From assembly GCA_963722075.1 (NCBI GenBank), contig CAVRJM010000001.1, forward strand, positions 1,210,864-1,274,863: a DNA stretch of 64,000 nt, read 5' to 3'. Position 1 is the first letter of the stretch; each line of letters opens with the position of its first letter. A model generated the notes under the pieces. It had not been told where the DNA came from, ran no database searches, and worked only from the letters and a program-made list of their open reading frames with translations. The stretch is from Candidatus Babeliales bacterium (lineage in GTDB: Bacteria > Babelota > Babeliae > Babelales > JANWKD01). Below, piece by piece: positions 15,439-37,162 of the stretch. The position numbers were made by a program, and so were the translations under genes.

Positions 15439-15475
15439 GGGTCTCATCTATTAATGCATGAGACCCTTTTTATTT
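15439..15475 (+). terminator. rho-independent terminator
   Basis: The stem GGGTCTCAT/ATGAGACCC is followed by a T-rich tract directly after the stop of paralog 1. Confidence 0.65.
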
Positions 15476-15493
15476 TTATAAAAATTTAATGTA

Positions 15494-15523
15494 TTGACAT
15501 TTAAAATAAATTAATTTTAATCT
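15494..15523 (+). promoter_or_regulatory. putative promoter (TTGACA-N18-TAATCT) of fibre paralog 2
   Basis: This is a duplicate of the block at 11931. The downstream RBS AAAGGAGAGAGGG is also conserved. Confidence 0.3.
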
Positions 15524-15581
15524 ATCTTAATCCAACACAAAAAAGAGAGTATATTTTTTAAAAAAAAGGAGAGAGGGTTAA

Positions 15582-18500
15582 ATGAAGAATAGAAAGCTTA
15601 AAATCTTTATTGCCAGAATGGTAATGGTAGGTTTGCTTGTGCAACATGCTGTGCCGTTGATGGCTGCCTATGAACAAGATTCAGTAAGCGAACAACCAGC
15701 TGAAATAACCTTATCAGTTCAAGGTAAAAGAGTAAAATCAGAAGATTCTATAAATTCTAATGTACTCATACCAACTGCCGAGACGAGTGAACAAATAGTA
15801 GTTATTGATGATGAGCAGTTAGAACATTTTATTGCATCTATAGTAAAAACCGTTGCTAGAAATGGAACACAGGAAACATTGTCAGAAGAAATGATGATTT
15901 TTTGTGAACAATTACTAACCGGTAAAAAAGAATTTTCAGTTGGATTCTTGTGCAAAGTTGTTCCTCAATTATTAACGCTCGCAAATAAAAGCATGGAAGA
16001 AGAGCGTGCCATGCGACCGAACGTTGGGTTTCAAGATGGGTCAATAGTAGGCCCATTACTTTCTTGCAACTTTGACCAAGTTCTTGCCTTGCTTCATCAA
16101 ATTTTTAATTTTTTAATGCAATGTTGTGCTACCATAGAATTTGATTTAAATGGTGTGTTTACCTTATTAAATACTGATTTTAATGGAACTTTTACTTTTC
16201 TTAATGAAATAGAAAATACCTTAACTACATGCTGTGCAATTGTAGAAAATGACTTGAATGGGGTATTTACGTTATTGAATACAGATTTTAACGGAACCTT
16301 TACCTTTCTTGATGAAATAGAAAATACCTTAACTACGTGTTGTGCAATTGTAGAAAATGATTTGAATGGAGTATTTACGGCACTTGCAGCTTTAACAGTA
16401 ACGGTTACGGTTGATTTTACGGATGTATTCACCACGCTTGATGATATTAATAATACACTAACTACCTGTTGCGCAATCGTAGAAAATGATTTAAATGGCG
16501 TATTTACCGTACTCAATACTGATTTTAATGGGGTTTTTACCGCATTAGCTGATTTATCAGTAACGGTCACGGTTGATTTTACGGATGTATTTACCACACT
16601 TGATGAAATTAATAATACATTAACTACTTGTTGCGCGATTGTAGAGAATGATTTAAATGGTGTCTTTACCGCCCTCAAGGATATAGGTATAACGTTTACT
16701 GTTGATATAACAAATATATTTACCACACTTGAAGATATTAATAATACGTTAACTACGTGTTGTGCCAATATTGAATTCGATTTTAATGGCATATTTACCA
16801 CAGTTACCGATATAATTGCATCAGTATCGACTGATTTTACGCTAGCCCTTACAACGCTAATAGAAATTAATAATACCTTAACGGAATGCTGCGCAAATAT
16901 TACCAATGAATTTAATGGTACCTTTACCGTGCTCAATGATATTGAAAATACCCTTACAACATGCTGTGCAACCGTAGAAACTGATTTGAACGGGGTATTT
17001 ACGTTATTGAATACAGATTTTAACGGGACCTTTACCTTTCTTAATGAAATAGAGAATACCTTAACTACGTGCTGTGCAATTGTAGAAACTGATTTGAATG
17101 GGGTATTTACGCTATTAAATACCGATTTCAATGGTACCTTTACGGTACTTGCAAGTTTAATGCCTGCCTGCCCTAACACAGTAATTACACAATCGGCGGT
17201 AAATGCGAGTGGTGGCACCTATACCATTTCTAATCCTGGTAATTATTCTTTATCTTCAGATATTACCTCAACAGCAGCAACCATTATTGTTATTGATGCT
17301 GATCAAGTAACGTTAGATCTGTGTGGACGTTCAATTATTGGGGCCGGCGTAGATAGTGGTGATCAAATTGGAATTACCGTAGAAGCGGGCCTTTCAGATA
17401 TTGCAATCACGAATGGTGATATAACTAATATGAGTATGGACGGTATTTTTGTAAATAGCGGCGTTTCCGATTTAAGCATAAGCAATATTGCGGTAAATAA
17501 TACCGGAAGATCAGGTATTAATCTTGAAGGAAACAGTGAATCATTAATTACCGAAGTAGTTATTAATAACTGCACAATTTCTTTAACGGCAACGGGGGCT
17601 ACAGGAATTGCAGGGCTAGTTTTAAATAATTGTGATACGGTAGCGGTGCAAGGTGGAAATTTTGATCGTAATGGATCACTAACTAATGTTGCAGGAATAT
17701 TAGTTAATGCATGTAATGATTGTGTAATCGATGCAGCCACTATGAATCTTAATACCAGTACCGGGTTATTATTAGTAGATTCTCAAAATTCAGTAGTCAA
17801 TAATGTGGTAATATCAAGAAACACGGGAGCAGGTATCGATCTTTCAGGAAGCTCATTTAATACATTTAATAATTGCGCTATAACGCGTACTGTTGCAACT
17901 GCTAATAACAGTGCTTATGGTATTAGAGCATTAGGCGGTGGTAGCAATAGATTTGAAAATTGTATAATTGATGGTACCTCGACTGCCGCAACAAGTTCAG
18001 ATTTTGAAGCAACAGGTATCTTGATTGGTAGTGACGAACAAGCGGATATTATTATAAATAATCAGGTCTCTAATTCTACAGCTTCATCATCAGGATTACC
18101 ATTTGGCATTCATATGGATTATACCTTTACTGCATTAAGTAATTCAAGCCTTCCATCAATTACTATTGGCACTACTATTGATAAAGTAGCATGGTCTCCT
18201 AATGATAAATATTTGGCAGTAAGTTTTGGAACTTTGTCTACAACCATTGCAGTTTATGCATTTGATAGAGATATCTTAGATTTAGTACAAGTCGCTACAG
18301 TTGCTCTTACTAACGCATGTCAAGATTTAGCGTGGTCCCCTGATGGCACTTATTTAGCAACGGTTGAGCCAAATGGTGTTAATGGTTTATTGCGAGTGTT
18401 CTTATTTAATGGTGTAAGTCTAAATCAAATAGCAACAGCAGCAGTAGGAACCGATGGTGGGGTTCCTGAATCGGTAAGTTGGAATGCTAATGGTAGATTT

Positions 18501-19367
18501 ATAGCGGTTGTTGGAAATGCGACTTCATTAACGCGTGTAAATGCAGACCCTACCGTTTATGTTTTTGAGTTTACTGGTTCTTTACTTAATCAAGTTGCAA
18601 CTACTGGTGTAGCAGGTACCGTAAATGCTGTTGCATGGGGCCCGCAAAATAATTATCTTGCGGTGGGTGCAATAGGGCTTTTAGATGTATTTAAATTTAC
18701 TGGTGGAACCACCTTAACGCTTGCTGCATCATTGTCCCTTGGTACTGATTCAGCCAATTCTGTTGATTGGGCGGTTGATGGTCGAACCTTGGTAATAAGT
18801 AATACTACTGGAATCTCAGTTGTTGAATTTACTGGAGTTGCGTTAACGCCAATAACAAGCGTATCAACTGGTGTTCAAGTGAATGATGCCCACTGGAGTT
18901 CTGATGGGCAATATGTGGTTATTGGGCAAAATGAAATAGCGGGAGGCGATGTAAAAGCGTATCTATATAATGGTACTTCTTTAACGCTTGAAAGTTCATA
19001 TACGCATGGAGCTAATGTCAGTTCAGTTGCTTGGTCTCGTGGTGGTGAATTTATTGCTATCGGTGGAAATGTATCTGGTGGTAAAACGGAAGAAACACTT
19101 TTTGGGTTAGTGTTTCCTGCTAATACCATTATAAGAAATAATGAAGTTTCAGGAGTGAGCGGGCCAGCGCTTGCAAGTGGAACTCCTGGGTTTTCAACGG
19201 GTCGCGGGATTAGTGCATCTTCAAATTCGAATTTAATTATACAAAATACGGCATTTAATAATGATGTTAATTACGTATTTGTGACGAATACCTTTTCCCA
19301 ATTTATTGCAAATACAGCAAGTCAATTCCCAAGTAATTTAGCTAATTTATCATTCCCTCCATTGTAA
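15582..19367 (+). CDS. secreted repeat-stalk / parallel beta-helix / 7-blade beta-propeller protein (paralog 2)
   Basis: 1261 aa. After residue ~66 the N-terminus up to the repeat array is identical to paralog 1. It has 9 Cys-Cys repeats, a longer beta-helix, seven AWSPDG-like blades, and a conserved C-terminus. Confidence 0.85.
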   Translation: MKNRKLKIFIARMVMVGLLVQHAVPLMAAYEQDSVSEQPAEITLSVQGKRVKSEDSINSNVLIPTAETSEQIVVIDDEQLEHFIASIVKTVARNGTQETLSEEMMIFCEQLLTGKKEFSVGFLCKVVPQLLTLANKSMEEERAMRPNVGFQDGSIVGPLLSCNFDQVLALLHQIFNFLMQCCATIEFDLNGVFTLLNTDFNGTFTFLNEIENTLTTCCAIVENDLNGVFTLLNTDFNGTFTFLDEIENTLTTCCAIVENDLNGVFTALAALTVTVTVDFTDVFTTLDDINNTLTTCCAIVENDLNGVFTVLNTDFNGVFTALADLSVTVTVDFTDVFTTLDEINNTLTTCCAIVENDLNGVFTALKDIGITFTVDITNIFTTLEDINNTLTTCCANIEFDFNGIFTTVTDIIASVSTDFTLALTTLIEINNTLTECCANITNEFNGTFTVLNDIENTLTTCCATVETDLNGVFTLLNTDFNGTFTFLNEIENTLTTCCAIVETDLNGVFTLLNTDFNGTFTVLASLMPACPNTVITQSAVNASGGTYTISNPGNYSLSSDITSTAATIIVIDADQVTLDLCGRSIIGAGVDSGDQIGITVEAGLSDIAITNGDITNMSMDGIFVNSGVSDLSISNIAVNNTGRSGINLEGNSESLITEVVINNCTISLTATGATGIAGLVLNNCDTVAVQGGNFDRNGSLTNVAGILVNACNDCVIDAATMNLNTSTGLLLVDSQNSVVNNVVISRNTGAGIDLSGSSFNTFNNCAITRTVATANNSAYGIRALGGGSNRFENCIIDGTSTAATSSDFEATGILIGSDEQADIIINNQVSNSTASSSGLPFGIHMDYTFTALSNSSLPSITIGTTIDKVAWSPNDKYLAVSFGTLSTTIAVYAFDRDILDLVQVATVALTNACQDLAWSPDGTYLATVEPNGVNGLLRVFLFNGVSLNQIATAAVGTDGGVPESVSWNANGRFIAVVGNATSLTRVNADPTVYVFEFTGSLLNQVATTGVAGTVNAVAWGPQNNYLAVGAIGLLDVFKFTGGTTLTLAASLSLGTDSANSVDWAVDGRTLVISNTTGISVVEFTGVALTPITSVSTGVQVNDAHWSSDGQYVVIGQNEIAGGDVKAYLYNGTSLTLESSYTHGANVSSVAWSRGGEFIAIGGNVSGGKTEETLFGLVFPANTIIRNNEVSGVSGPALASGTPGFSTGRGISASSNSNLIIQNTAFNNDVNYVFVTNTFSQFIANTASQFPSNLANLSFPPL
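16123..17150 (+). repeat. in-frame tandem repeat array: 9 Cys-Cys units (25-54 aa)
   Basis: The unit family is the same as at 12561-13412. Some blocks are nearly identical at DNA level to paralog 1. Units 6-9 have no counterpart there. Confidence 0.85.
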
Positions 19368-19386
19368 TATAATAAGCTAAAATCAA

Positions 19387-19416
19387 AGCCGAGTAGTTTT
19401 CTACTCGGCTTTTTTA
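19387..19416 (+). terminator. rho-independent terminator
   Basis: A 10-bp stem (AGCCGAGTAG/CTACTCGGCT) with loop TTTT is followed by T5, after the stop of paralog 2. Confidence 0.7.
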
Positions 19417-19831: not shown

Positions 19832-20236
19832 ATGGTTAATATAAGAAATTTTTTACTTTTAATAATGATAACTTTTATTGGTTTAATAAGCGCTGTTGCT
19901 AAATATAAGGTTCCGGTAATAACGGAAAAAGAAGTAATGGCTATTTTAGCACCGATTGAAGTACCAGTGGAAACAGCTCAGAAAGTTAAATGTTATTGTT
20001 CATTTAAATGTGGGCCACGAGATGTTAAGCCTGATGATACGCCATTTTATGATGAAGAAGTTGGTGTCTGTTTTTGCAAAAAACGTGACCAAGAAGCCTA
20101 TGCGCAACCAGTTCATGAATGTCATAAAAAAAAGAATGTTGATTTTCCTAATTCATGTGGTAGAAAGCAGTTCTTTAGAACGCCTAAAAATATTCCGGCT
20201 ACTACTTCTTCAACTACTGTTCCGGCAAATAAGTAA
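19832..20236 (+). CDS. small secreted Cys-rich protein, hypothetical
   Basis: 134 aa with AGGAGA upstream and a signal-like N-terminus. Eight Cys residues occur in KCYCSFKCG...GVCFCKK...HECH...NSCG. Confidence 0.6.
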   Translation: MVNIRNFLLLIMITFIGLISAVAKYKVPVITEKEVMAILAPIEVPVETAQKVKCYCSFKCGPRDVKPDDTPFYDEEVGVCFCKKRDQEAYAQPVHECHKKKNVDFPNSCGRKQFFRTPKNIPATTSSTTVPANK

Positions 20237-20249
20237 TAATTATCAAAAT

Positions 20250-20341
20250 GTCATCCCGAGCGAACGCGTGGGGATCCAGGTTCCATTAAAAATGTTTTGA
20301 TTTATTTATTCACTGGATCCTTACACTCCGTTCAGGATGAC
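20250..20341. repeat. GC-rich palindromic intergenic element (copy B)
   Basis: GTCATCCCGAGCGAACGCGTGGGGATCCAG, a spacer, then CTGGATCCTTACACTCCGTTCAGGATGAC. It has the same layout and orientation as copy A. Confidence 0.7.
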
Positions 20342-20572
20342 ATTCATAGGTTTCATTAGATTATAATTATTCTTATTAATTAATGAGCTAAAAAAGATTA
20401 ATTATTCTATTTCTTAGTCAAAACTTATCTTGATCGAATGTACGTCTAATTAGTTAAGAATCAAATATTTATTAATTCTTAAACACTTTTCAATGAAGTC
20501 TTGATTTTTTAAATTCCCATTTCTTAAGGTGGGCATAGAAAAATTTAAGATATCAATTGTTAAGGTGTTTAT

Positions 20573-23500
20573 ATGCAATTTTTTTTATTAATTCTATTAA
20601 CATTTTTTGTTTCGCTTTACAGTGAAGGTTCCCTTAAAGAATTATCGTCCCAGAACAGCTTCATAGAGATTGGCGTAGTGCGTGCACCACGACCATCAAC
20701 TACTGAGGGCGGATTTATTGGTTTAGCAGGCCTCTTTACAACAACTCCTTCTATTACTGAAATAGAAAATATTGTATTTAATAGCGGATTCATCCAGGGC
20801 CCGATAGCTTCTACTATAGATGCGGTACCTCGTTTTGCTAATACAACCGGAAACCTTTTAAAAAATTCATTAGTGTTGGTGGATGATGCAGGTAATATTA
20901 CGATTAATGGCATCACTAAAAATGGTAATACGGTATCATGGCCTTCTATTGTAGGAGCTGCAGGAACTTTTTTAGGAAGTGATGGTGTTGGGAATTTAAT
21001 TTATTCAACACCTGTTGGTAGTGGCAACGTATCAACAGCACTTCCTTTCACCACTAATGATGCTATTACTACCGTAGATATATTAAGCGGTTCACATGAT
21101 ATCAAGCAAACAAGCGTTACCATTGATAGTAGTGATAATATTAATGGCATTAATTCTCTCAATGCTAATGTAGTCAATGCTCCCGCCTTAAATGGAAATG
21201 CAACATCTGCAACAACTGCAGGAAGTTTTACTGGTGTACTTGCTGGTGACGTAACAGGGCCGCAAAGTGCGACGGTGGTAAATTTTGTCGGAGGCCAATC
21301 GGCAGCAAATGTAGCAGCGGCAACCGTGCTTGCCAATGCGGCAACAAGTAGTGACGTGCCAAATACATTGGTGTTACGTGATGGATCTGGCAACTTTGAA
21401 ACTAATATGATTACTATTGATGGTACGGTAACCAATCCAACTGATGTGGCCACCAAACAATATGTGGATGATGCGGTATTAACTGGTTTTGTTATTAAGG
21501 CGCCTGCTGTTGCATATGGTGCATCTAATATTACATTGTCTGGTCTTCAAACTATTGATGGGGTGGCACTTAATTCTAATGATCGCGTGTTGTTGAATGC
21601 TCAAACAAATCCGGTACAAAATGGCTTATGGTTAGCTCAAGTGGGTGCATGGACGCGGCCTGCTGATTTTGCTTCAGGGACTCAAGCGGAACGATCATAT
21701 GTACTTATTACTTTAGGCACTGTTTTTGAAGGATCAAGTTGGGTTTGTGCTACACCAAATGCGATTATTGATACCGATCCTATAACATTTATTGAATTTT
21801 CGTTACCCAATCAGACGACGGGGGCAAACGTTGGTGTGGGTCAAGGACAGATATTTCAAAGTAAAACCGGAAATACACTCAACTTTAGAACAATTCTTGC
21901 TGGTCCACATATAGTGGTGACTAATGATCCCAATGATGTCATGATTTCTACGGATGCTACGAATGCAGATACGCCCAATACAATAGTGCTCCGTGATGGC
22001 TCAGGCAATTTTTCTGCCAGTACTATTACGGCGGCCTTAACCGGTGCTGCATCATTAAACGTACTTAAAGCCGGTGATACGATGACGGGCAACCTCAATT
22101 TAGCGTTGCAATCACAGCTTCGTTTGCAAGATTCAACGGGTAGCGGCAGTTATGTTGGCTTGGATGCACCTGCTGTTGTTCCAGTAAGTTATACCGTAAA
22201 TTTACCAGCAAGCGCGCCGACAACGGGCCAAGTGTTACAAGCAACCTCACCAACGGCATTACAATGGGCGACTGTTGGTGGTTCGACTATTAGTGAGGCA
22301 TATTATGTGGAGCTTAGTGGTAGTGATGCAAATAACGGTTCTTTCTCAGCCCCATTTAGAACGGTAGCGCATGCCGTAAATGTGGCAAATGGCGTTGCGA
22401 GCCTAGCTAATCCGATAGTTATTCATGTAGGAGCGGGTATATTTGTAGAAAATAACAGCGGTGGCCCAATAACTATTAGTGCAGATGGCATTAGCATTGT
22501 AGGAAGCTCCAATTCTGGTACCACGATTGTGCCAACTTCATTAACCAATGATCTATTTAATATAGCCGCGGCAAATGTTGAATTTGATAATTTTACCATT
22601 TCAATATCTAATTCTACCTCAACCGGAAATGCAATTACATTATCAACGAGCAGCGCTGGGTTAGCAACTTTTAATACCATAACTATTATTGGTGCATTTA
22701 ATAATGGTTTTAATTTAAGTACCAGTGTGGGATCATCGTCAGTAGCCTTTAATAACATTTTAACAGGCGGATGCACTACCGCGATCTCATTAAATAATAT
22801 GCAATGCGTAATCAAAAATTCACTTTTTCAAGGATCATTAACAACAACGCCAGCTAATACCGGTTTTTCAATTACGGGAACCAATTCAATCATTTATGTA
22901 CTTGGGAGTTTATTACGCTTATGTAATACCGCATTATCAATTACGGGGGGTGCTAATATTCATGTTATTGGAACTACTATAGAATCTAGTATTAATGGCA
23001 TAGTGGCAAACGGTGGCAGTATTGTAGAAATGGTGGGCGATAACTTTTCGTTTAATAGTCCTAGCTCTATAAATGTATTTGCATCGGGTGCTAACACGAA
23101 CGTAACGGTTGATGGTTGCCAATTTGCCTGCGCTGATATGGCGGGAAATTCACAAGGCACTGCGGTGCAAGCAACTAATCAAGGGACCATATTGCTTGTT
23201 GGATCAAGTATTGAATATGCAGTATTAGGGATACAATGTGGCGCGGTGAGTGATACCAGTGCTACTTCTATCCGCGCAAATGCTACAACGCTTATAGGAT
23301 GTACTACCGATATACAACAATTAGGAAGTTCTACTTTTAGATTTGTAGGCGGGGTATTTGATGTTAATAAAATAAGCATAGCTAATGCAACAAATGTTAC
23401 CTTTGCTGCTTTTGATCGCACCAACAATGAAACATTAGCATTAGGTAGTAATGCTGACACTAATCAAACATTATTTGAGGTATTAAATGCACAACCGACG

Positions 23501-26500
23501 TTGCCTTATCTTCAATATATGTCAAATTATTATGGTGCAAAAGGACCGGTATATGTAAATCCAAATGCTGATCCTACCTTAAACGGTGTTCAGGCGCAAA
23601 GTAATAACGCTTCTTATTTTGTGGTGACGGGTGACAATACCAAACAAACAGGAATTAATTTATTTTCTGATACCGCAAATTTTGGCAATTCAGATAATAT
23701 ACGTGGTTGGGGAATCACCAAAGTAGGATCCTCTGCGGCATTAACATTTGTTTATACTAATAATGATTCTTCAGGCCAAGCATTACGTGGCTCAAATACG
23801 GTAATGCAACTTAACGGATTTGATAATCAAGTGGAATTCCCCCTTGCAACTAATGCACCGCTGCCAACTAATACGGTGGCAAAACTTGTGTGGGCAGGTG
23901 ATACCGATTTATATCGCTCTGCCGCTAATACTTTACAGACAGATGGTAATTTAGTTGTTGGTAGCTTAACACCAGCGGGAGTGGTCCATAATAATAATAC
24001 CGGTTTACTATCTACTTCACTCATAGTAAATGCCGATATAAGTAACAGCGCAGGAATTACTGATAATAAATTAGCAACCATTAGTACACCAGGAAAAGTA
24101 GCAAACTCAGCAACCACCGCAACGAGTGCGAATGTTCCAAATACCATTGTATTGCGTGACGGTTCAGGAAATTTTGCAGCAGGCACTATTACGGCATCAT
24201 TAATTGGTGCTGCGTCACTGAACGTGCTGAAGACCGGTGACACCATGACTGGCAACTTATTAATGGCAAACCAATCACAACTGCAATTCCAGGATAGCAC
24301 GAGTGGTAATTATGTAGCGATAGATGCACCAACAACCGTAGCTGCTACTTATACCGTTAGTTTACCCGCAACGGCACCACTGAGCGGTCAAGTATTGCAA
24401 GCAACATCGCCAACTACCCTCACCTGGGCATCGGTAGGTGGTTCCCCTGCGGTTGCTAAAACATATTATGTTGCTTTAAATGGTAATGATAGCAATGACG
24501 GATCATTTGATGCGCCATTTAGAACCGTTGCGCATGCAGTGAGCGTAGCAAATGGGGTTGCAAGTAGCGCAAATCCTATTGAAATTAGTATTATTGGAGC
24601 AGGAATATTTATTGAAAATAATTCAGGAGGTCCAATTACCGTAACTGCTGAAGGTATAAATATTATTGGTAGTTCAAATCAAGCAACTATTATAATGCCC
24701 ACAACGGCGGCAAATGACCTTTTTAGTATAGTAGTTCCCTCAGCAAAATTTGAGGCTTTTCAAGTAGCGTTATCGGGAGTTGGGTCGACCGGGAATGCGG
24801 TTACGTATAATGCAGGTCCTATCGGTGTTGTTACTATCGATAGAGTTGCGGTAAACGGGTCTTTTAATAATGCTTTTGCAATAAACGCAACTTCTGGTAC
24901 TCCAACAATAATATTAAATAATATTTTATGTGGCGGCTGTGTTAATGCCATTTCGATTACTAATGCGCAATGCGTTATTAAAAATTCTATTTTTCAAGGA
25001 TCATTGACAGCAAGCCCAGCAAATAATGGTATAAGCATTACCGGAACGAATGCTATTGTATTTTGTCTGAGTAACGTATTTAAATTATTTGCTAATGCTA
25101 TAAGTGTAACGGGTGGTGCAAGTGTTCGCATCTTGGGATCTAATTTTGAATCTACTACTAATGGATTAGCTGCATTAGGAGATAGTAACTTAACGATTGT
25201 TGGTTGCAACTTCATACTTAATAATCCAAGCTCAATAAATATTGCAGCTGCAGGGGCAAATACTGCTATTACGGTAGATGGATGTCAATTTCAATGCAAT
25301 GATGCAACGGGCAATCCACAAGGGACGGCACTTAAAGTAACAACAGGTGCATCAATACTTGCCGTTGGATCTTCTATTACAAATGCTGTAGTAGGTATTC
25401 AATGTGGTACAGCGGGAGACGCCAATACCACCGTAATGCGTGCGAATGCTACTACTTTAATTGGCTGTACTACTGATATTGTACAAACAAGTAGTTCAGC
25501 ATTATTTTTTATTGGTGGGGTATTTGACTCAAATAAGTTATCTTTTGCAAATCCAGCAAATGTTAGTTTTAGCGCATTTGATAGAACAAATAATGATGCA
25601 TTGACGCTCGGCAATGATGCTGATACTAATCAAATGTTAATACAAGTTTTAAACGGTGAGTCACTATTTCCAAATTGGGCATATCGATCGAATTATTACG
25701 GTACTAAAGGAGTTGTTTACGAAAATCAAAATAGTGACGCAACCTTTAATGGCGTGCAAGCGCAAAGTAATAATGCATCATATTTTGTAGTTACGGGAAA
25801 TAATGCCGCTCAAGCGAGCATAAATCTTTTATCCGATACAGCAAATTTTGGTAACCCTAACTCCGAGAATGTTCGTGGCTGGAGCATTGTTAAAACAGGT
25901 ACATCTGCCGACTTAGCATTTACCTATACTAATAACGATTCATCAGACCAAGCATTGCGCGGTTCTAATACCGTGATGCAACTTAATGGTTTTGATAATC
26001 AAGTAGAATTTCCTATTGCAACTAATGCACCGCTGCCAACTAATGCGGTAGCAAAATTAGTATGGGCTGGAGACACCGATTTATACCGTTCAACTACAGC
26101 AACGTTAGCAACTGATGGTAATTTAATTGTTGGCGCATTAACGCCTGCTGGTGTAGTGCATAATAGCAATACAGGATTACTTTCTACCTCGCTAATTGTA
26201 AATGCTGATATCAGCCCAGCCGCTGGGATTACTGATGATAAACTGGCAACCATTAGCACACCAGGAAAAGTTGCCAATTCTGCTACCACCGCAACGAGTG
26301 CTGATACGCCAAATACCATTGTACTGCGCGATGGTTCAGGAAATTTTGCAGCCGGCGCTATTACGGCATCATTAATCGGTGCTGCATCATTGAATGTGCT
26401 CAAGACTGGCGACACGATGACCGGTAATTTATTAATGGCAAACCAATCGCAAATACAATTCCAGGATAGTACCAGCGGTAATTATGTTGCAATAGATGCA

Positions 26501-29500
26501 CCAACAACGGTAGCTGCAACATATACCGTAAGCTTGCCTGCAAATGCGCCAACAACAGGCCAAGTATTGCAAGCAACATCACCAACAACACTCACCTGGG
26601 CATCGGTAGGCGGCTCACCAGCAATAGCAGAAACCTATTATGTTTCCCTTGCTGGTAGCGATAGTAATGATGGGTCTTTCTCGGCGCCATTTAGAACGGT
26701 AACTCATGCGGTGAACGTAGCTAATGGCGTAGCTAGTCTTGCTAATCCTATTGTTATTAATGTGGGTGCCGGTAATTTTGTTGAAAATAATACCGGTGGG
26801 CCAATTATTATTTCTGCTGATGGCATTAGTATTGTGGGGGCTACGCTTGTAGCTACTACCATTATACCAGCAAGTAGTACTGTCGATTTATTTCATATAA
26901 CAACAGGCAATGTTGAATTTCAAAATATATCATTGACGACACCGTTTCCTGGCTCTACAGCAAGTGCCGTTGTTATTACTATTTCGTCGGGGACGCCCCA
27001 ATTTAATACTATAACAGTGGGGCAATTCCAAATGGGATTTGACTTAAGCAGCTCAGTAATAACAAACATTCCTACTGTGGTATTTGAAAATATGCAATGT
27101 GCCGGTAATGGTACGAATATTATAGCTAATAATATCAATGCGGTGATTAAAAATTCTGTATTCCAAGGGCCATTATTCTTTGGGAGTGCAGCAAATAACG
27201 GCATTATATTAACAGGTGCAAACACACAAGCATTAATTTTAAGTTGCGCATTAAAATCATTTGACAATGCGCTACAAATTACCAACGCTGCACAAGCACG
27301 AATTCTCAGTGTTGATATTGAAAGCTCTACCACAGGCATTTTGTGCAATGGTGTATCAGATGCTTCAATTATTGGTTGTAATTTCTTTATCAATAATGCA
27401 AATTCGATCAACGTAAGTGTCTCAGGAGCAGGTACCAATATTACAGTAGAAGGTTCTCACTTTGAAGGATCTCTTGCGGGTGATACGCCATTGGGTACTG
27501 CACTTCAAGTAATTAATGGAGCAGTACTTTCAGTTGATTCTTGTGCTATCGAAAATGTTGCGGTAGGAATTCAATGTGGTAATCCGGGTGATACGGTTAC
27601 CACATTCTTAGAAGCAAGCGGTGTCGTTCTATCTGGCTGTACGGTAGATATTCAGCAAAATGGTGCTTCAAAACTTAATTTTTTTAGCGGCGTAGTTGAT
27701 ATCGATAAAACATTTATAAACGACCCAACCAATGTGAGTATTGCTGCATTTAATGATCAATCAGAATTAGTAATAGGGTCAGGAGCTAATACTGAACACC
27801 TGCTTTATGAGGTGCTTAATGGTCAAGTGCCAAGACCAAGTCTTACCTATGAGCCGGATTATTATGGAAAAATGGGTACGGTATTTGTAAATAGTAATAC
27901 GGGACAAACATTTAATGCAACGCAAGCACAAAGTGATAATGCTGCCTATTTTGTAATTACCGGCGATAACACTAAAGAAGCAGGACTTAATTTATTTTCA
28001 GATACTGCAAATTTTGGTGATCCAGATAATGTACGCGGGTGGGGAATCATAAAAACAGGGACATCTGCCGATTTAGCATTTACCTATACTAATAATGATT
28101 CGTCAGGACAAGCATTACGCGGTTCTAATACCGTGATGCAGCTCAATGGCTTTGATAATCAAGTAGAATTTCCTATTGCAACGAATGCACCATTGCCAAC
28201 TAATACGGTAGCAAAATTGATATGGGCTGGAGACACCGATTTATATCGCTCAACTACAGCAACGTTAGCAACGGATAGTAATTTTGTGGTTGCGCAGAAC
28301 GTAACCATTTCAAGTTTAACACCGGCTGGCGTAGTGCATAATGATAATACTGGTTTGCTTTCGACATCATTAATTGTAGACGCCGATATTAGCGCAAGTG
28401 CAAATATTGCTGATACAAAATTGGCAACGATTAGCACGCCCGGTAAAGTAGCAAATTCCGCTACTACAGCAACCAGTTCAGATGTGCCAAATACTATTGT
28501 GCTTCGCGATGGGTTAGGAAATTTTGAAACCAACATGATTACCATTGATGGAACTGTTAGTAATCCAACTGATGTTGCAACAAAGCAATATGTGGATAAT
28601 GCAGTAACAACCGGATTTGTGGTAAAGACAGCTGCTTTAGTGACCAGCACCGTTGATGTTGCCATTAGTGGGTTACAAACAGTTGATGGTGTGATGCTGA
28701 CCACCAGCGATCGAGTATTATTAGTTGGGCAAACAGATGGCGTAGAAAACGGATTATGGCTCGCTGAAGTAGGAAATTGGATGCGCCCAACTGATTTTTC
28801 TAGTGGTACTTCGGCTGGTAATTCATATGTACTTACCCTTTCAGGTACCGTAAATGGCGGGTCCAGTTGGATTTGTATTACGCCAACATCAATTATAGAT
28901 ACTAATACGATAGAATTTACTCAATTTGCATTAGCAAGCCAAACTACCGGCGCCAATGTGGGAGCAGGTACGGGGCAAGTGTTTCAAAGTAAAACCGGAA
29001 ATGTGTTGAATTTCAGAACACTTCTTGCCGGAACTCATATGGTAATAACAACTGACCCAAATGATGTAGCAATCGCAACTGATGCAACAAGCGCGAATAC
29101 ACCAAATACGCTTGTGGCGCGTGATGCCTCGGGAAATTTTGCTGCCGCGACTATTACGGCAAATTTATCGGGTAATGCTTCAACCGCAACATCCGCCACC
29201 AATTTTACCGGGGCGCTTGCTGGTGATGTTACTGGAACACAAGGAGCAACGGTGGTAAATTTTGTGGGTGGGCAAAGTGCAGCCAATGTTTCTTCAGCAA
29301 CGGTAGCAGCAAATGCAGCAACCAATTCTAATACACCAAATACGATCGTATTGCGCGATGGATCTGGTAATTTCTCAGCAGGCACGATTACGGCAAATCT
29401 CACCGGAAATGTTACCGGGAACTTAACTGGTAATGCCACAACTGCAACTAATGCAACGACGGCGGTAAATTTCAGCGGTTCGCTAAATGGAGATGTAACC

Positions 29501-31789
29501 GGAACGCAAGGCGCAACGGTAGTGAGCAACGTTGGTGGGCAAAGTGCTGCAAATGTAGCGGCAGCTACGGTGCTTGCAAGTGCATCCACAAGTGCAGATA
29601 CGCCAAGTACTATTGTGCGCAGAGATGCATCAGGAAATTTCTCAGCTGGTACAATCACCGCAAATTTAAATGGTAATGCAACCACCGCAACTACGGCAAC
29701 TACTGCAACAACTGCCGGATCGGCAATAAATTTTACGGGATCACTCAGTGGCGATGTAACGGGTACACAGGGAGCAACGGTGGTGAGTTTTGTTGGTGGG
29801 CAAAGCGCAGCAAGCGTAGCAGCAGCAACGACATTAGTTGGAACGGCAACGAGTAATAATATTCCAAGCACCTTAGTATTGCGTGATACATCAGGGAATT
29901 TTAGTGCCGGCACGATTACAGCGAATTTATCAGGGAATGCAACCACCGCAACAACTGCAACCAATTTTACCGGATCGTTATCGGGTGATGTAACGGGCAC
30001 GCAAAGTGCTACGGTGGTAAGTACCGTTGGTGGGCAAAGTGCAGCAAATGTTGCTTCAGCAACGGTGGCAGCAAATGCAGCAACCAATTCTAATACAGCA
30101 AACACCATTGTAAAACGTGATGCGTCAGGAAACTTTAGTGCTGACACAATAACGGCAAATTTAACAGGTAACGTGACGGGTAATTTAAGTGGTAATGCCA
30201 CCACGGCAACAACAGCCGGATCGGCAACAAACTTTACCGGATCACTTGAAGGAGATGTAACCGGAACCCAAGGTGCTACGGTAGTAAGTTCAGTTGGTGG
30301 GCAAACAGCAGCAAACGTGGCAGCAGCCACCGTGCTTGCCAATGCTGCAACCAACGCTGATACGCCAAGCACTATTGTACGCCGTGATGCATCAGGTAAT
30401 TTTAGTGCAGGTACAATTACTGCAAGTCTAAATGGTAATGCTACCACAGCAACCACAGCAACTAGTGCGACAACGGCAACTACCGCAACAAATTTCACTG
30501 GATCACTGAGCGGCGATGTAACGGGAACACAAGGTGCAACGGTGGTTAGTTTTGTGGGTGGGCAAAGCGCAGCAAGCGTAGCAGCAGCAACGTCACTGGT
30601 AAATACTGCTACCAGCAATAATGTAGCAAATACCATTGTAAAACGTGATGCATCAGGAAACTTTAGTGCTGGCACCATTACAGCAAATTTAACCGGTAAT
30701 GCAACCACTGCGACAACAGCAACCAATTTTAGCGGATCGCTATCAGGTGATGTAACGGGCACGCAAGGTGTAACGGTGGTAAGTACTGTTGGTGGGCAAA
30801 GTGCCGCCAATGTAGCATCAGCAACGGTGGCAGCAAACGCAGCAACGAATGCAGATACCGCAAGCACCATTGTAAAACGAGATGCATCAGGCAATTTTAG
30901 CGCTGGCACGATCACCGCAAATCTTACTGGTAACGTTACGGGGAATTTGAGCGGTAATGCAACCACGGCAACAACAGCCGGATCGGCAACAAACTTTACC
31001 GGCTCACTTTCAGGAGATGTAACCGGTACGCAAAGTGCAACGGTGGTCAGTTCAGTTGGCGGACAAAGTGCGGCAAATGTAGCAGCAGCTACCGTACTTG
31101 CCAATGCAGCAACAAGTGCTAATACGCCAAGTGCTATTGTGCGTCGTGATGCTTCGGGGAACTTCTCTGCGGGTGTTATTACGGCATCGCTTACGGGTGG
31201 TGTACTGACGGGGAATTTAACCTTGCCAGCAGGAACGGCAGCAGTGCCATCATTACAATTTTCAGGAAGTACTAATACCGGTATATCAGCACCGGCAGCA
31301 AATACGCTATCACTTGATACCAATGGCACCCAGCGGTTGAGTATTGATTCCACCGGAAGTGTTACGTACCATTCCAATTATAAAATGTATGCTTATTTAT
31401 CATCAAATCAAACTGTTAATGATACTACCGCAACGATTATTTTTAATACCGAATTATTTGATACCAATTCTAATTATAATAATACTACTGGTGTATATAC
31501 GGTACCAGTGACGGGAGTTTACCTAGTTGGCGTTACGGTGAATACCCAATCTTCTCATTCATCAGGTGCAACCCAAACGGTGAATATTGGACTAAACGGG
31601 ACAACTCCAATAACAGGAGCTTCTGTTTCACAAATTTCAAACTCAAGTGCTCAAAAATTGCCGATGACTTTATGCATATTGCTTTCATTAACGGCTGGCA
31701 ATACTATTCAAGTTCAATATACTACAAATCAGGACGATACGATTCAGTCGGGTGATACGCATTTGGCGATTCATTTTATGTCATTCTAA
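20573..31789 (+). CDS. giant secreted fibre-like protein (3,738 aa) with tail-fibre-like repeats, three beta-helix modules and a C1q/TNF-like C-terminal domain
   Basis: A single open frame of 11.2 kb with a Sec-like N-terminus. The PNTIVLRDGSGNF motif occurs 13 times. YYV..GSD.NDGSF.APFRTV.HAV...VGAGIF.ENN occurs three times. The C-terminal pattern IIFNTELFDTNSNYNNTTGVYTVPVTGVYLVGV...TAGNTIQVQY...HLAIHFMSF is C1q-like. Confidence 0.9.
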   Translation: MQFFLLILLTFFVSLYSEGSLKELSSQNSFIEIGVVRAPRPSTTEGGFIGLAGLFTTTPSITEIENIVFNSGFIQGPIASTIDAVPRFANTTGNLLKNSLVLVDDAGNITINGITKNGNTVSWPSIVGAAGTFLGSDGVGNLIYSTPVGSGNVSTALPFTTNDAITTVDILSGSHDIKQTSVTIDSSDNINGINSLNANVVNAPALNGNATSATTAGSFTGVLAGDVTGPQSATVVNFVGGQSAANVAAATVLANAATSSDVPNTLVLRDGSGNFETNMITIDGTVTNPTDVATKQYVDDAVLTGFVIKAPAVAYGASNITLSGLQTIDGVALNSNDRVLLNAQTNPVQNGLWLAQVGAWTRPADFASGTQAERSYVLITLGTVFEGSSWVCATPNAIIDTDPITFIEFSLPNQTTGANVGVGQGQIFQSKTGNTLNFRTILAGPHIVVTNDPNDVMISTDATNADTPNTIVLRDGSGNFSASTITAALTGAASLNVLKAGDTMTGNLNLALQSQLRLQDSTGSGSYVGLDAPAVVPVSYTVNLPASAPTTGQVLQATSPTALQWATVGGSTISEAYYVELSGSDANNGSFSAPFRTVAHAVNVANGVASLANPIVIHVGAGIFVENNSGGPITISADGISIVGSSNSGTTIVPTSLTNDLFNIAAANVEFDNFTISISNSTSTGNAITLSTSSAGLATFNTITIIGAFNNGFNLSTSVGSSSVAFNNILTGGCTTAISLNNMQCVIKNSLFQGSLTTTPANTGFSITGTNSIIYVLGSLLRLCNTALSITGGANIHVIGTTIESSINGIVANGGSIVEMVGDNFSFNSPSSINVFASGANTNVTVDGCQFACADMAGNSQGTAVQATNQGTILLVGSSIEYAVLGIQCGAVSDTSATSIRANATTLIGCTTDIQQLGSSTFRFVGGVFDVNKISIANATNVTFAAFDRTNNETLALGSNADTNQTLFEVLNAQPTLPYLQYMSNYYGAKGPVYVNPNADPTLNGVQAQSNNASYFVVTGDNTKQTGINLFSDTANFGNSDNIRGWGITKVGSSAALTFVYTNNDSSGQALRGSNTVMQLNGFDNQVEFPLATNAPLPTNTVAKLVWAGDTDLYRSAANTLQTDGNLVVGSLTPAGVVHNNNTGLLSTSLIVNADISNSAGITDNKLATISTPGKVANSATTATSANVPNTIVLRDGSGNFAAGTITASLIGAASLNVLKTGDTMTGNLLMANQSQLQFQDSTSGNYVAIDAPTTVAATYTVSLPATAPLSGQVLQATSPTTLTWASVGGSPAVAKTYYVALNGNDSNDGSFDAPFRTVAHAVSVANGVASSANPIEISIIGAGIFIENNSGGPITVTAEGINIIGSSNQATIIMPTTAANDLFSIVVPSAKFEAFQVALSGVGSTGNAVTYNAGPIGVVTIDRVAVNGSFNNAFAINATSGTPTIILNNILCGGCVNAISITNAQCVIKNSIFQGSLTASPANNGISITGTNAIVFCLSNVFKLFANAISVTGGASVRILGSNFESTTNGLAALGDSNLTIVGCNFILNNPSSINIAAAGANTAITVDGCQFQCNDATGNPQGTALKVTTGASILAVGSSITNAVVGIQCGTAGDANTTVMRANATTLIGCTTDIVQTSSSALFFIGGVFDSNKLSFANPANVSFSAFDRTNNDALTLGNDADTNQMLIQVLNGESLFPNWAYRSNYYGTKGVVYENQNSDATFNGVQAQSNNASYFVVTGNNAAQASINLLSDTANFGNPNSENVRGWSIVKTGTSADLAFTYTNNDSSDQALRGSNTVMQLNGFDNQVEFPIATNAPLPTNAVAKLVWAGDTDLYRSTTATLATDGNLIVGALTPAGVVHNSNTGLLSTSLIVNADISPAAGITDDKLATISTPGKVANSATTATSADTPNTIVLRDGSGNFAAGAITASLIGAASLNVLKTGDTMTGNLLMANQSQIQFQDSTSGNYVAIDAPTTVAATYTVSLPANAPTTGQVLQATSPTTLTWASVGGSPAIAETYYVSLAGSDSNDGSFSAPFRTVTHAVNVANGVASLANPIVINVGAGNFVENNTGGPIIISADGISIVGATLVATTIIPASSTVDLFHITTGNVEFQNISLTTPFPGSTASAVVITISSGTPQFNTITVGQFQMGFDLSSSVITNIPTVVFENMQCAGNGTNIIANNINAVIKNSVFQGPLFFGSAANNGIILTGANTQALILSCALKSFDNALQITNAAQARILSVDIESSTTGILCNGVSDASIIGCNFFINNANSINVSVSGAGTNITVEGSHFEGSLAGDTPLGTALQVINGAVLSVDSCAIENVAVGIQCGNPGDTVTTFLEASGVVLSGCTVDIQQNGASKLNFFSGVVDIDKTFINDPTNVSIAAFNDQSELVIGSGANTEHLLYEVLNGQVPRPSLTYEPDYYGKMGTVFVNSNTGQTFNATQAQSDNAAYFVITGDNTKEAGLNLFSDTANFGDPDNVRGWGIIKTGTSADLAFTYTNNDSSGQALRGSNTVMQLNGFDNQVEFPIATNAPLPTNTVAKLIWAGDTDLYRSTTATLATDSNFVVAQNVTISSLTPAGVVHNDNTGLLSTSLIVDADISASANIADTKLATISTPGKVANSATTATSSDVPNTIVLRDGLGNFETNMITIDGTVSNPTDVATKQYVDNAVTTGFVVKTAALVTSTVDVAISGLQTVDGVMLTTSDRVLLVGQTDGVENGLWLAEVGNWMRPTDFSSGTSAGNSYVLTLSGTVNGGSSWICITPTSIIDTNTIEFTQFALASQTTGANVGAGTGQVFQSKTGNVLNFRTLLAGTHMVITTDPNDVAIATDATSANTPNTLVARDASGNFAAATITANLSGNASTATSATNFTGALAGDVTGTQGATVVNFVGGQSAANVSSATVAANAATNSNTPNTIVLRDGSGNFSAGTITANLTGNVTGNLTGNATTATNATTAVNFSGSLNGDVTGTQGATVVSNVGGQSAANVAAATVLASASTSADTPSTIVRRDASGNFSAGTITANLNGNATTATTATTATTAGSAINFTGSLSGDVTGTQGATVVSFVGGQSAASVAAATTLVGTATSNNIPSTLVLRDTSGNFSAGTITANLSGNATTATTATNFTGSLSGDVTGTQSATVVSTVGGQSAANVASATVAANAATNSNTANTIVKRDASGNFSADTITANLTGNVTGNLSGNATTATTAGSATNFTGSLEGDVTGTQGATVVSSVGGQTAANVAAATVLANAATNADTPSTIVRRDASGNFSAGTITASLNGNATTATTATSATTATTATNFTGSLSGDVTGTQGATVVSFVGGQSAASVAAATSLVNTATSNNVANTIVKRDASGNFSAGTITANLTGNATTATTATNFSGSLSGDVTGTQGVTVVSTVGGQSAANVASATVAANAATNADTASTIVKRDASGNFSAGTITANLTGNVTGNLSGNATTATTAGSATNFTGSLSGDVTGTQSATVVSSVGGQSAANVAAATVLANAATSANTPSAIVRRDASGNFSAGVITASLTGGVLTGNLTLPAGTAAVPSLQFSGSTNTGISAPAANTLSLDTNGTQRLSIDSTGSVTYHSNYKMYAYLSSNQTVNDTTATIIFNTELFDTNSNYNNTTGVYTVPVTGVYLVGVTVNTQSSHSSGATQTVNIGLNGTTPITGASVSQISNSSAQKLPMTLCILLSLTAGNTIQVQYTTNQDDTIQSGDTHLAIHFMSF
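21359..21973 (+). repeat. module A, copy 1 (205 aa) of the giant gene
   Basis: PNTLVLRDGSGNFETNMITIDGTVTNPTDVATKQYVDDAV...DRVLLNAQTNPVQNGLWLAQVGAWTRPADF... It is repeated at 28487-29101 with the same length. Confidence 0.85.
21974..28486 (+). repeat. three tandem B units (721, 724 and 726 aa) of the giant gene
   Basis: Unit boundaries fall at 21974, 24137, 26309 and 28487. They were set by the in-frame PNTIVLRDGSGNF motif. The units are diverged but collinear. Confidence 0.85.
28487..29101 (+). repeat. module A, copy 2 (205 aa) of the giant gene
   Basis: PNTIVLRDGLGNFETNMITIDGTVSNPTDVATKQYVDNAV...DRVLLVGQTDGVENGLWLAEVGNWMRPTDF... Confidence 0.85.
29102..31126 (+). repeat. eight short tandem units (78/89/87 aa) with a 254-aa higher-order period
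   Basis: Counted unit lengths are 78,89,87,78,89,87,78,89 aa (675 aa, 2025 bp). The consensus is xxTIVxRDxSGNFSAGTITANLxGN..ATTAT..NFTGSLSGDVTGTQxATVVSxVGGQSAANVAxATV.ANAAT. Confidence 0.85.
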
Positions 31790-32399: not shown

Positions 32400-33125
32400 T
32401 TATTTTAAAATTGTTTGTTTGATTTCAAAAATTTTCTTAAAAAGTTCAAGGTCTTCTTGATGAGTAAATACAAAATATACTTTTTTAATGAAATGGTGCT
32501 TTCGTTGTGTTTCATTGATAATCGTCTTTATAGCAATTTCAGCGGCTTCTTGTTTGGGGAATCCATAAATGCCACTTGAAATAAAGGGGAAGGCTATAGA
32601 TTCATTCTCTTTATATTCCCCGGCAGATCGAAAGGCTTCTTGGTAACAATTAATTAAAATCTGCTGTGCCTGTTTTTTATCTGAATAAGCCGAATAAATA
32701 GGCCCCACCGCATGTACAATGAACTTAATGCCGTAATTAGCTTCTAAATTAAAACTCGGTGTTATAACGGCTTCTCCTGGCTCTATGCCTTTAGGAAAAT
32801 GAGTTTTAATATATTCTTCTAGGGCGTGTGTTTTGCCTTGTGCAGCTTCAAAAATGGCGCCACAAACGCCGCCACCAGGTAATAGGTATTTATTGGCTGC
32901 ATTTACAATAGCATCAATTGGCAACGTAGTAATATCTTTTTTGATCAATACAAAAGTAACCTTATTGATAATGAATTCATACTGATTAGCTGGTTGCGCT
33001 GTTGAGGCAACGGATTGGTGTTGAATAAGATATTCAGGATCTTTATGATGAAGTGCAAAATCAGGAAGAATGGCATGAGCGGTTTTAAATAAATGCAAAA
33101 AGAAAATAAATGTTAAAGATTTCAT
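32400..33125 (-). CDS. macro domain protein (ADP-ribose binding/hydrolase family) with signal peptide
   Basis: The macro-domain signature AIVNAANKYLLPGGGVCGAIFEAAQG and the later FPFISSGIYGFP are present. The N-terminus MKSLTFIFFLHLFKTAHA is Sec-like. Confidence 0.8.
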   Translation of the reverse strand: MKSLTFIFFLHLFKTAHAILPDFALHHKDPEYLIQHQSVASTAQPANQYEFIINKVTFVLIKKDITTLPIDAIVNAANKYLLPGGGVCGAIFEAAQGKTHALEEYIKTHFPKGIEPGEAVITPSFNLEANYGIKFIVHAVGPIYSAYSDKKQAQQILINCYQEAFRSAGEYKENESIAFPFISSGIYGFPKQEAAEIAIKTIINETQRKHHFIKKVYFVFTHQEDLELFKKIFEIKQTILK

Positions 33126-36264: not shown

Positions 36265-37162
36265 AAATTGGTATTATTGGGCTGGGTAAAATGGGCAATG
36301 TGCTGGTGTATCGCTTAAAAAAAGCACACTTTGAAGTGGTGGGATTTGACCCTCAATTAAAAGCCCGTACTGCTATTAATAAATATGGTGCAAGCACTGT
36401 TTCTTCGATCGAAATGATTTCTGCGCATGCGCGCATTATATGGTTGATGGTGCCAGCTGGGGCCGCGGTTGATGCTGTTTTAAAAGAATTAGAGCCGCAT
36501 TTAAAAAAGGGCGATATTATTATCGATGGTGGTAATAGTTACTTTAAAGATTCAATAAAACATGCGCAGCAATTAAAAAAAAGGGAATTCATTTTATTGA
36601 TTGCGGCACTTCTGGTGGTCTTGCAGGTAAGAAAAAGGGTTTTTCCTTAATGATAGGAGGAGATGAAAAAATTTTTAATTATCTAGAGCCACTCTTTAAA
36701 GCATTAGCTGCTCCTAAGGGATATGGGTATATGGGCGATTCAGGTGCAGGGCATTACGTTAAAATGGTACATAATGGTATTGAGTATGCATTATTACAAG
36801 CATACGCAGAAGGATTTCATTTATTAAAAAATGGTTCTTATAAGGATTTAGATTTAGAAAAAATAACCGGCGTATGGGACCATGGTTCCATTATTCGTTC
36901 GTGGATTTTGCATTTGGCTCATGATATTTTTAAAAAAGATCAGCAATTGAAAGATGTGGTAGGCATAATACAGGAGAGTGGTATGGGGCAGTGGACGGTG
37001 GATGAAGCGCATGAAAAAAAGATTCCCGTAAAGCTAATCGAAGATGCTTTAACAATTCGTGCATGGTCACGTGAAACTGGTGGTGATTATGCTACTAAAG
37101 TGGTTGCCTTACTGCGGCATGCTTTTGGCGGACATGCAATAACAAAAAGGAAAAAGAAATGA
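36261..37162 (+). CDS. gnd: 6-phosphogluconate dehydrogenase (short YqeC/Gnd-like), reading frame interrupted at an A8 run
   Basis: The track splits it into 36252..36650 and 36650..37162. The N-part reads MKIGIIGLGKMG...IIDGGNSYFKDS and the C-part reads MIGGDEK...GAGHYVKMVHNGIEYALLQAYAEG. Reading one extra A at 36575-36582 gives LKKKGIHFIDCGTSGGLAGKKKGFSLMIGGDE. Confidence 0.8.

Follow-up and report, generated by a model that had tools for sequence, protein, structure and literature searches.

Fibres that are encoded by the bacterial cell, resemble those of phages and display TNF/C1q-like tips are described from Bdellovibrio bacteriovorus as mosaic adhesive trimers (MATs), examples being Bd2439 and Bd2734; one MAT has been experimentally shown to bind prey glycans (PMC10769870). 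Fibres are also formed by BclA/BclB in the exosporium of Bacillus and by the collagen-like proteins of Pasteuria, the latter being implicated in host attachment (PMC10987987). The present analysis concerns a 64,000-nucleotide (nt) stretch from a Candidatus Babeliales bacterium (GCA_963722075.1, contig CAVRJM010000001.1, positions 1,210,864 to 1,274,863), referred to here as the window, and a giant open reading frame (ORF) within it at 20573..31789 (+). With moderate confidence, this gene is considered to encode the subunit of a very long homotrimeric surface fibre, built of phage receptor-binding parts, that mediates the attachment of Dependentiae to their protist host. Dependentiae (TM6) is a widespread phylum of obligately protist-associated bacteria; no described adhesin or host-range determinant for Dependentiae was found in the literature searched, nor any paper on these proteins or relevant work on C1q, tail fibres, adhesins, giant genes or proteins of the cell surface in this phylum.

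Module architecture of the giant protein

The giant ORF encodes 3738 amino acids (aa) plus a stop codon, starts with ATG and is uninterrupted over its 11.2 kb, as stated in a preliminary description of this DNA; a Shine-Dalgarno-like AAGGTG is read directly from the sequence at 20562..20567 (+), 5 nt ahead of the ATG. Modules were phased by a regular-expression scan for the 13-residue motif [PAS][NS][TA][LI]V.RD.[SL]GNF, which occurs 14 times and in all 14 cases in frame, starting at aa 263, 468, 1189, 1913, 2639, 2844, 2922, 3011, 3098, 3176, 3265, 3352, 3430 and 3519 (nt 21359, 21974, 24137, 26309, 28487, 29102 and onward to 31127). The resulting order is N-terminus, C0, A, B, B, B, A, eight C units, tip and head, with a terminal segment of 220 aa (aa 3519-3738) after the last motif; all module boundaries proposed earlier were reproduced (A 205/205 aa, B 721/724/726 aa, eight C units in a 78/89/87 pattern with a 254-aa super-period). 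The two A copies are 68% identical and the three B copies 62-66% identical in pairwise comparison at the aa level (66-69% at the nt level); C units in the same phase of the super-period share 78-92% identity, and those in different phases 64-73%.

The C-terminus (aa 3606-3738; 31388..31786 (+)) is a bona fide C1q domain. The Pfam model PF00386, with a gathering score of 23.7, reaches 31.3 bits when run on the complete protein and 37.0 bits when run on its final 220 aa. A profile of 13 homologous heads retrieves C1q, adiponectin, cerebellin and C1QL1-3 from PDB sequences with E values of 2e-19 to 1e-5, and also the collagen VIII/X NC1 domains. The AlphaFold2 (AF2) model of the last 220 aa features a compact β-sandwich jelly-roll with a predicted local distance difference test score (pLDDT) of 80-95 across the head; Foldseek aligns it to C1QL1-3, the C1q domain of Caprin-2, collagen X NC1, C1q and BclA with template-modelling scores (TMt) of 0.75-0.83 and root-mean-square deviations of 2.3-3.0 Å, and knobs on phage spikes and fibres (9eul, 9k09) are further structural matches. 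The C1q/TNF jelly-roll pattern first noticed in the terminal ~135 aa is thereby borne out by a Pfam score above threshold, by the profile matches and by a predicted fold at TM ~0.8.

The shaft is composed of A modules, C units and a neck. The short unit C0 (aa 181-262; 21113..21358 (+)) is a degenerate first C-type stalk unit, its earlier assignment as C-type being upheld by alignment to C1-C3 with 47-48 identities over 80-87 columns. Module A1 (205 aa, aa 263-467; 21359..21973 (+)) is of the phage decoration/tail-fibre type and matches 315 phage records at ~35% identity; module A2 (205 aa, aa 2639-2843; 28487..29101 (+)) matches, over aa 2674-2825, the PDB entry 9nx3_A, 'Capsid decoration protein', with an E value of 4e-9 by phmmer. 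Module A scores against PHROG 27782, 2647, 24595 and 11518 with E values of 1e-15 to 1e-22, and these families are annotated as head decoration, virion structural or tail fibre; the phage tail-fibre link suggested for module A is consequently sound in the sense of homology to phage decoration/tail-fibre modules. The eight C units C1-C8 (aa 2844-3518; 29102..31126 (+)) have lengths of 78/89/87 aa twice over and then 78/89 aa, and are rich in Thr, Ala, Gly, Ser and Asn; they match phrog_697 (in eight stretches), phrog_5342 and phrog_356, and Tandem Repeats Finder (TRF) reports a period of 261 nt in this region. The C units display no GXY periodicity and the protein has no Pfam Collagen match, and a C-unit profile found no matches among PDB sequences. 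An antisense ORF of 780 aa (29035-31377 (-)) lies wholly within the C-repeat region and most likely arises from the repeats being poor in stops and richer in GC (45% GC against a background of ~33%). The neck ahead of the head (aa 3519-3605; 31127..31387 (+)), which had been called tail-fibre-tip-like, matches the PHROG tail-fibre families 18345, 28766 and 9942 and is 45-53% identical to cyanophage tail-fibre proteins, in agreement with that label. Pfam and NCBIfam give no matches on the N-terminus or on the A, B and C modules. Judged on these alignments, the shaft modules (A, C and neck) are of phage ancestry and homologous to phage fibre/decoration modules.

Three B units are held between the A modules: B1 (721 aa, aa 468-1188; 21974..24136 (+)), made up of a fibre neck, a β-helix, a sub-domain named Bc1 and a connector; B2 (724 aa, aa 1189-1912; 24137..26308 (+)), which was taken for structure prediction; and B3 (726 aa, aa 1913-2638; 26309..28486 (+)), delimited by motif phasing. 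The start of the B unit features the phage-fibre motifs TIVLRDGSGNF and KAGDTMTGNL and matches PHROG 5342, 'tail fiber'; a profile of the B neck gives only sub-significant matches in PDB sequences, to phage fibre 'KAGDTMTGNL' segments. The AF2 model of B2, built as a monomer on an alignment of 13 sequences, has a pLDDT mostly of 80-95 over model residues ~110-470 and a regular E-E-E pattern with three strands per turn, which places a right-handed parallel β-helix at aa ~1298-1658 (24464..25546 (+)); the β-helix of B1 is placed by homology to B2 at ~22304-23386 (+), and that of B3 lies within its unit at ~26636-27718 (+). All top Foldseek matches of B2 in the PDB are right-handed β-helices, with E values down to 1.6e-5, and include a GH87 glucanase, CBA120 TSP3, AlgE4 (TMt 0.50), inulin lyase (TMt 0.56) and chondroitinase B, with further fold matches to phi29 gp12 and to Acinetobacter or Klebsiella tailspikes; in BFVD the matches are phage pectate-lyase-superfamily, DUF1565, endosialidase and tailspike proteins, with E values down to 1.8e-9. 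Each B unit is predicted to hold a right-handed β-helix that is tailspike-like or polysaccharide-lyase-like, the similarity being one of fold only. Below threshold, Pfam offers weak hints to NosD (E 0.85) and Adeno_E1B_55K (E 0.27).

Bc1 (in B2 aa ~1675-1838; 25595..26086 (+)) is the most conserved sub-domain of the B unit, with the near-invariant residues YYG.KG, SD, RGW.I.K, NND..GQA and W across 21 B units. A Bc1 profile found no homologue among PDB sequences, the matches being at chance level, and the pLDDT of Bc1 is low in the monomer model of B2. In or at the ends of the helix region, the acidic residues D1306, E1348 and D1616 are invariant across the same 21 units, and D1635 and D1684 are kept in 19 of 21. 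A neighbour-joining tree of these units displays both within-genome clusters and positional orthologues, a pattern that indicates repeated duplication or homogenisation.

The nature of the B units raises the alternative that the protein is a secreted or surface-tethered array of polysaccharide depolymerases, with β-helices active on host glycocalyx, cyst wall or prey polymers and with the fibre parts as spacers. This is considered rather unlikely. In its favour, the best structural neighbours are enzymes or tailspikes with enzymatic activity (GH87, AlgE4, chondroitinase B, inulin lyase, CBA120 TSP3 and, in addition, K5 lyase), and D1306, E1348 and D1616 are invariant; however, no Pfam lyase or hydrolase family scores, and the invariant acidic residues sit in the motif of the N-terminal cap and where the helix ends on its C-terminal side rather than demonstrably in a groove. 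Conservation, moreover, peaks in Bc1, outside the helix, and a C1q head on a phage-fibre shaft is typical of binding proteins and not of free enzymes.

The N-terminus consists of a hydrophobic, signal-peptide-like stretch, MQFFLLILLTFFVSLYSEGS (20573..20632 (+)), with a top 12-residue Kyte-Doolittle mean of 2.88, and a conserved 'basal' domain at aa ~60-180 (20750..21112 (+)) that is a candidate anchor. Many relatives carry classical leaders with K/R plus a hydrophobic stretch, and a hydrophobic N-terminus is present in 34 of the 65 family members that have at least 1,500 aa and a Met start. The basal domain is 47-66% identical in the homologous giants L003-L008. A search for its homologues returned only seven database hits, none of them a Bdellovibrio protein; one hit has a source name, from a TM6 genome. 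The seven include a collagen-repeat protein of 275 aa from TM6, annotated 'BclB domain-containing', which has the stretch ITKNGNTVSWPS..G..GTFL.SDG.GNLIYS.P in common with the basal domain. A conserved base common to fibres with different shafts is expected of an anchoring module, and the basal domain is a putative anchor of the fibre on the grounds of its conservation and of its sharing with a TM6 fibre protein of different build.

These likenesses bear on a further possibility, that the protein is a structural coat or 'nap' of the extracellular stage, comparable to the BclA nap of the Bacillus exosporium and serving protection, size or hydrophobicity. The head is structurally near BclA (TMt 0.79), and part of the N-terminal domain recurs in the collagen/'BclB domain' protein just described; nevertheless, a nap is judged unlikely, as the swapping of heads and shuffling of modules between genomes (described below) are seen more typically in receptor-binding proteins whose host range is under selection, and as the fibre contains β-helix domains of the receptor-binding type.

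Relatives and integrity of the repeats

A search with B2 finds close relatives in metagenomes, and the few that have a source name are Dependentiae, Babeliales or 'uncultured bacterium' metagenome-assembled genomes. A scan of one genome per GTDB species, in which loci were re-annotated with the modules of the window protein, yielded eight loci; six of the eight are labelled Babeliales or TM6 and two 'bacterium' or 'uncultured bacterium'. Independent Babeliales/TM6 genomes encode uninterrupted homologous giants of 3,049-4,436 aa that hold one to three B units. In this analysis, the window is placed in Dependentiae through its homologues in Babeliales/TM6 metagenome-assembled genomes. L003 (4436 aa) consists of N, ~nine C, A, B, B, B, A, ~nine C, tip and C1q, and L004 (3225 aa), from a complete 1.34-Mb chromosome, of N, C, A, B, B, A, C, tip and C1q; L005 (3049 aa) has N, C, A, B, B and then a different head, and L007 (3920 aa) has N, B, B, C, A, B and then a different head, an order that L010 (4374 aa) also displays. 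The nested module order is kept in some lineages and rearranged in others.

A HMMER search with the helix-plus-Bc1 core among 1.84 billion proteins gave 181 cluster representatives, 99 of them with E values below 1e-30; many members are giant, with lengths of up to 7,500 aa and as many as five B cores with A modules between them. In the subset with 800 aa or more, 26 heads are of the '...WYRxxRG' type and five of the C1q type '...HFMSF'. The window protein has no S74 domain by Pfam; several weaker hits of the B2 search, which match the short fibre motif of the B unit only, carry PF13884. Among the distant B-core members P0123, P0127, P0159 and P0164, some begin with collagen-like GXY repeats or a transmembrane segment, and others are without a leader. 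The B-core family may reach beyond the giant Babeliales fibres, possibly into other taxa or viruses; the giants themselves form an uncharacterised, lineage-restricted family of module-shuffled mosaic fibres.

At several loci from metagenome assemblies (L001/L006 at 2578-16405, L002 at 1280-7107, and L008/L009) the giant gene is split into two to four consecutive ORFs at repeat junctions; the reading frame is broken there by frameshifts or stops, which may reflect errors of assembly or genuine decay. One such metagenome contig carries a 543-aa leader-bearing ORF directly upstream of the broken giant gene.

The fibre gene is highly repetitive, and collapsed or expanded repeats could have produced its structure as an assembly artefact; this is held to be extremely improbable. 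Exact DNA repeats within the gene reach 41 bp at most, and nt identity among the copies of A, B and C is 62-85%; given such short exact repeats, the copies are taken to be old and diverged, not of the kind that an assembler collapses or invents. The frame is intact across 11.2 kb, and the same nested architecture with multiple B units appears as single ORFs in independent assemblies, among them the complete chromosome. What speaks for an artefact is a near-identical sequence in the highly fragmented assembly GCA_052916205.1, a contig of only 1,684 bp that is 99.8% identical to 20535-22216 with a single, 2-nt indel; the window reads CC at ~21044 where the contig (L011, at ~510) reads CCCC, which breaks the fibre ORF there. 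The frame of the window at this point agrees with all homologues, and a sequencing error, pseudogenisation at strain level or slippage at this site could explain the difference. Exact-match queries with the giant protein and with the adjacent G6PD gave no database record, this contig being the sole match.

Genomic context

The window carries genes for a TsaB-like protein, photolyase, tmRNA, PGI, G6PD, 6PGD, SOD, NDK, S1, an ABC transporter, ankyrin, Fic and Macro proteins and two transposases, and the related contigs L001, L002 and L012-L014 carry DsbD, DJ-1, GltX, FtsY, MutL, RNase HII, ankyrin and transporter genes. A scan of part of the window and of the flanks on those five contigs revealed no capsid, terminase, portal, tape-measure, baseplate or integrase gene, and no B-unit relative exists among the 2.9 million contigs of IMG/VR. 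The preliminary description had reported an absence of phage genes nearby, which holds for the scanned part of the window and is matched by the chromosomal contexts of some ten related loci; it had also asked whether homologues sit in complete prophages, and the flanks examined contain no phage structural genes. In L004 the homologue lies on the 1.34-Mb complete chromosome beside other large non-phage proteins. Synteny between the window and related loci is essentially absent, except for paralogues of two upstream large proteins that stand beside the L004 giant.

Since most modules are homologous to phage structural proteins, the gene might be regarded as the tail fibre, or a relic of one, of a prophage, a tailocin or another phage-derived particle. 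This is very unlikely given the scans above, which revealed neither phage structural and integrase genes around the loci nor relatives in IMG/VR, together with the chromosomal surroundings in L004 and the export-type leader at the N-terminus.

Between the fibre gene and the large gene that precedes it lies a strong bidirectional terminator (19385-19412). The intergenic region contains a 16-nt inverted repeat (20247-20262 / 20329-20344) with a 66-nt spacer, and just before it lies a small ORF (19832-20236 (+), 134 aa) that is Cys-rich, leader-bearing and without a family match. The large genes further upstream (12024-15419 and 15582-19367 (+)) are tandem paralogous giants of 1131 and 1261 aa that are 54% identical overall, with the N-terminal ~230 aa nearly identical except for the first ~65 aa; each has a leader-like start, ~30-aa repeats with a cysteine pair, CCAIVENDLNGVFT (Pfam Baculo_PEP_C), a Pfam Beta_helix region and a WD40 propeller. 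Their paralogues adjoining the L004 giant fibre gene are 28-30% identical to them. Two adjacent DDE transposase genes (9498-10523 and 10712-11836 (-)) lie before this pair, ~9 kb upstream of the fibre gene.

Genes of the eukaryote-interaction type are found on both sides of the fibre gene, at 3740-4408, 5831-6448 and 6462-7031 (+), 7565-8671, 32400-33125 and 39983-40576 (-), and 40716-41270 (+); the set comprises three ankyrin-repeat proteins and Fic, Macro-domain, C2H2 zinc-finger and fasciclin-domain proteins. The ankyrin/Fic/Macro-type neighbours fit an intracellular, host-dependent lifestyle. Elsewhere in the window, the tmRNA gene (7093-7517 (+)) encodes an unusually long 29-residue tag, ANTVKSDVPAALFGSIQNSVFGAQAAACA; 6-phosphogluconate dehydrogenase is encoded by an NAD-binding ORF (36252-36650 (+)) and a C-terminal ORF (36650-37162 (+)) with a one-base overlap (TAATG), and is either frameshifted or a genuinely split gene; and two nucleoside diphosphate kinase genes lie in tandem (42217-42741 and 42794-43204 (-)), one of them with an N-terminal extension of ~40 aa.

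Proposed function and comparison with known fibres

In the proposed attachment fibre, the hydrophobic N-terminus would direct Sec export and the conserved domain of ~120 aa behind the leader would act as the envelope anchor. A trimeric shaft like that of a phage fibre would follow, made of the C units, module A and the necks, which are homologous in sequence to phage parts; homotrimerisation is inferred because C1q heads, phage fibres and tailspikes are trimers. The three tailspike-like β-helices, as predicted, would be arranged as beads on the shaft, where they would bind and possibly cleave host surface glycans, and the distal C1q head, a C1q member by sequence and fold, would be trimeric and serve as the primary ligand-binding tip. 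Such a fibre would mediate attachment of the extracellular stage to the protist host and promote uptake; between genomes, changes in module number, order and head type would adjust how far the fibre reaches and what it binds, as is the case for phage tail fibres and the MAT adhesins of Bdellovibrio. For scale, the Bdellovibrio protein Bd3182 has 922 aa and an AlphaFold model ~550 Å long (PMC10769870); by analogy the fibre may be ~0.2 micrometre in length, an order-of-magnitude guess.

Several results weigh against an attachment fibre of this design. The leader of the window protein has no basic n-region, and Pfam and NCBIfam detect no known outer-membrane anchor or secretion domain anywhere in the protein, in which only C1q scores. 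The first ~100 and last ~240 residues of the B2 model are poor, leaving about half of the B unit at low confidence. The B units do not score against the Pfam models for DUF1565 (PF07602), Beta_helix (PF13229) or pectate lyases even at E<=10, and no catalytic constellation could be assigned from conservation across the 21 B units; of the DUF1565/pectate-lyase-type β-helices described earlier, the fold stands by AF2 and Foldseek and the named Pfam families do not, and the term 'enzyme-like' is apt for fold resemblance and not for Pfam families or conserved catalytic residues.

It is tentatively suggested, as a broader and less secure view, that Dependentiae have domesticated phage receptor-binding modules into lineage-specific 'cellular tail fibres' that set which protists they attach to and are engulfed by; these would be trimers of ~0.2 micrometre with up to five β-helix beads and an exchangeable tip, and module duplication, loss and head swapping would drive the evolution of host range. 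If this is true, the adhesin architecture has not been described before, and an entire candidate phylum would gain its first candidate for a determinant of host range.

Phage tailspikes and fibres (CBA120 TSP3, phi29 gp12, Acinetobacter/Klebsiella depolymerases and cyanophage fibres) resemble the protein in the fold of the B units and in the neck, and the phage capsid decoration protein 9nx3 resembles it in module A; unlike these phage proteins, it has an export leader, no phage genomic context, no counterpart in IMG/VR and three β-helices in series on one polypeptide. Trimeric autotransporter adhesins (YadA/BadA) are likewise giant, repetitive and presumably trimeric surface fibres of host-associated bacteria, and one relative (P0011) is named 'trimeric autotransporter adhesin' by its database source; the polarity is opposite, however, as the base would here be the N-terminus. 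Assignment to this class was rejected, the C-terminus being a C1q head with no YadA-type anchor and the YadA head and stalk families having no Pfam matches. With BclA (1wck/2z5w, TMt 0.79), the head of which is trimeric, the protein shares the logic of a bacterial surface filament with a C1q-like head; it differs from BclA, BclB and the Pasteuria proteins in that its stalk is not collagen, it is ~ten times longer and it contains β-helix and phage modules.

The MAT fibres offer the closest concept, by likeness of architecture and not by sequence homology. Both groups are chromosomal and phage-tail-fibre-like, with mosaic evolution, and both combine a phage-fibre-like shaft with exchangeable C-terminal tips, S74 and TNF/C1q-like folds being among the MAT tips and C1q being the tip here (PMC10769870). 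MATs begin with a signal peptide and a conserved, β-rich N-terminal domain of ~130 aa (PMC10769870), to which the leader-like stretch and the basal domain of the present protein may correspond. The user of MATs, like the proposed user here, is a bacterium that must recognise and enter another cell (PMC10769870). PDB sequence searches found no similarity to the crystallised MAT fragments, and TM6 is not mentioned in the supplements of the MAT paper (PMC10769870). MATs are ~600-1,100 aa in size, against 3,738 aa here and up to 7,500 aa in the family, and their shafts are intertwined triple β-helices; serial single-chain right-handed β-helices and module A are not known to be features of MATs (PMC10769870). 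The earlier statement that no characterised bacterial structure has this layout is thus correct in part: cell-encoded fibres tipped by TNF/C1q-like domains are known from MATs and BclA, whereas no precedent was found for serial tailspike-like β-helices on one chain, and a multi-tailspike layout is, to our knowledge, undescribed. MATs belong to Bdellovibrio, of another phylum, and the target here is presumably eukaryotic. The fibre family is a concrete candidate for host attachment in Dependentiae, and with it the bacterial repertoire would gain a C1q domain that is clear from sequence. The reuse of phage receptor-binding proteins by bacteria that invade cells, the principle recently recognised in MATs, would then extend to another phylum, to hosts that are eukaryotic and to a much larger format with multiple β-helices.

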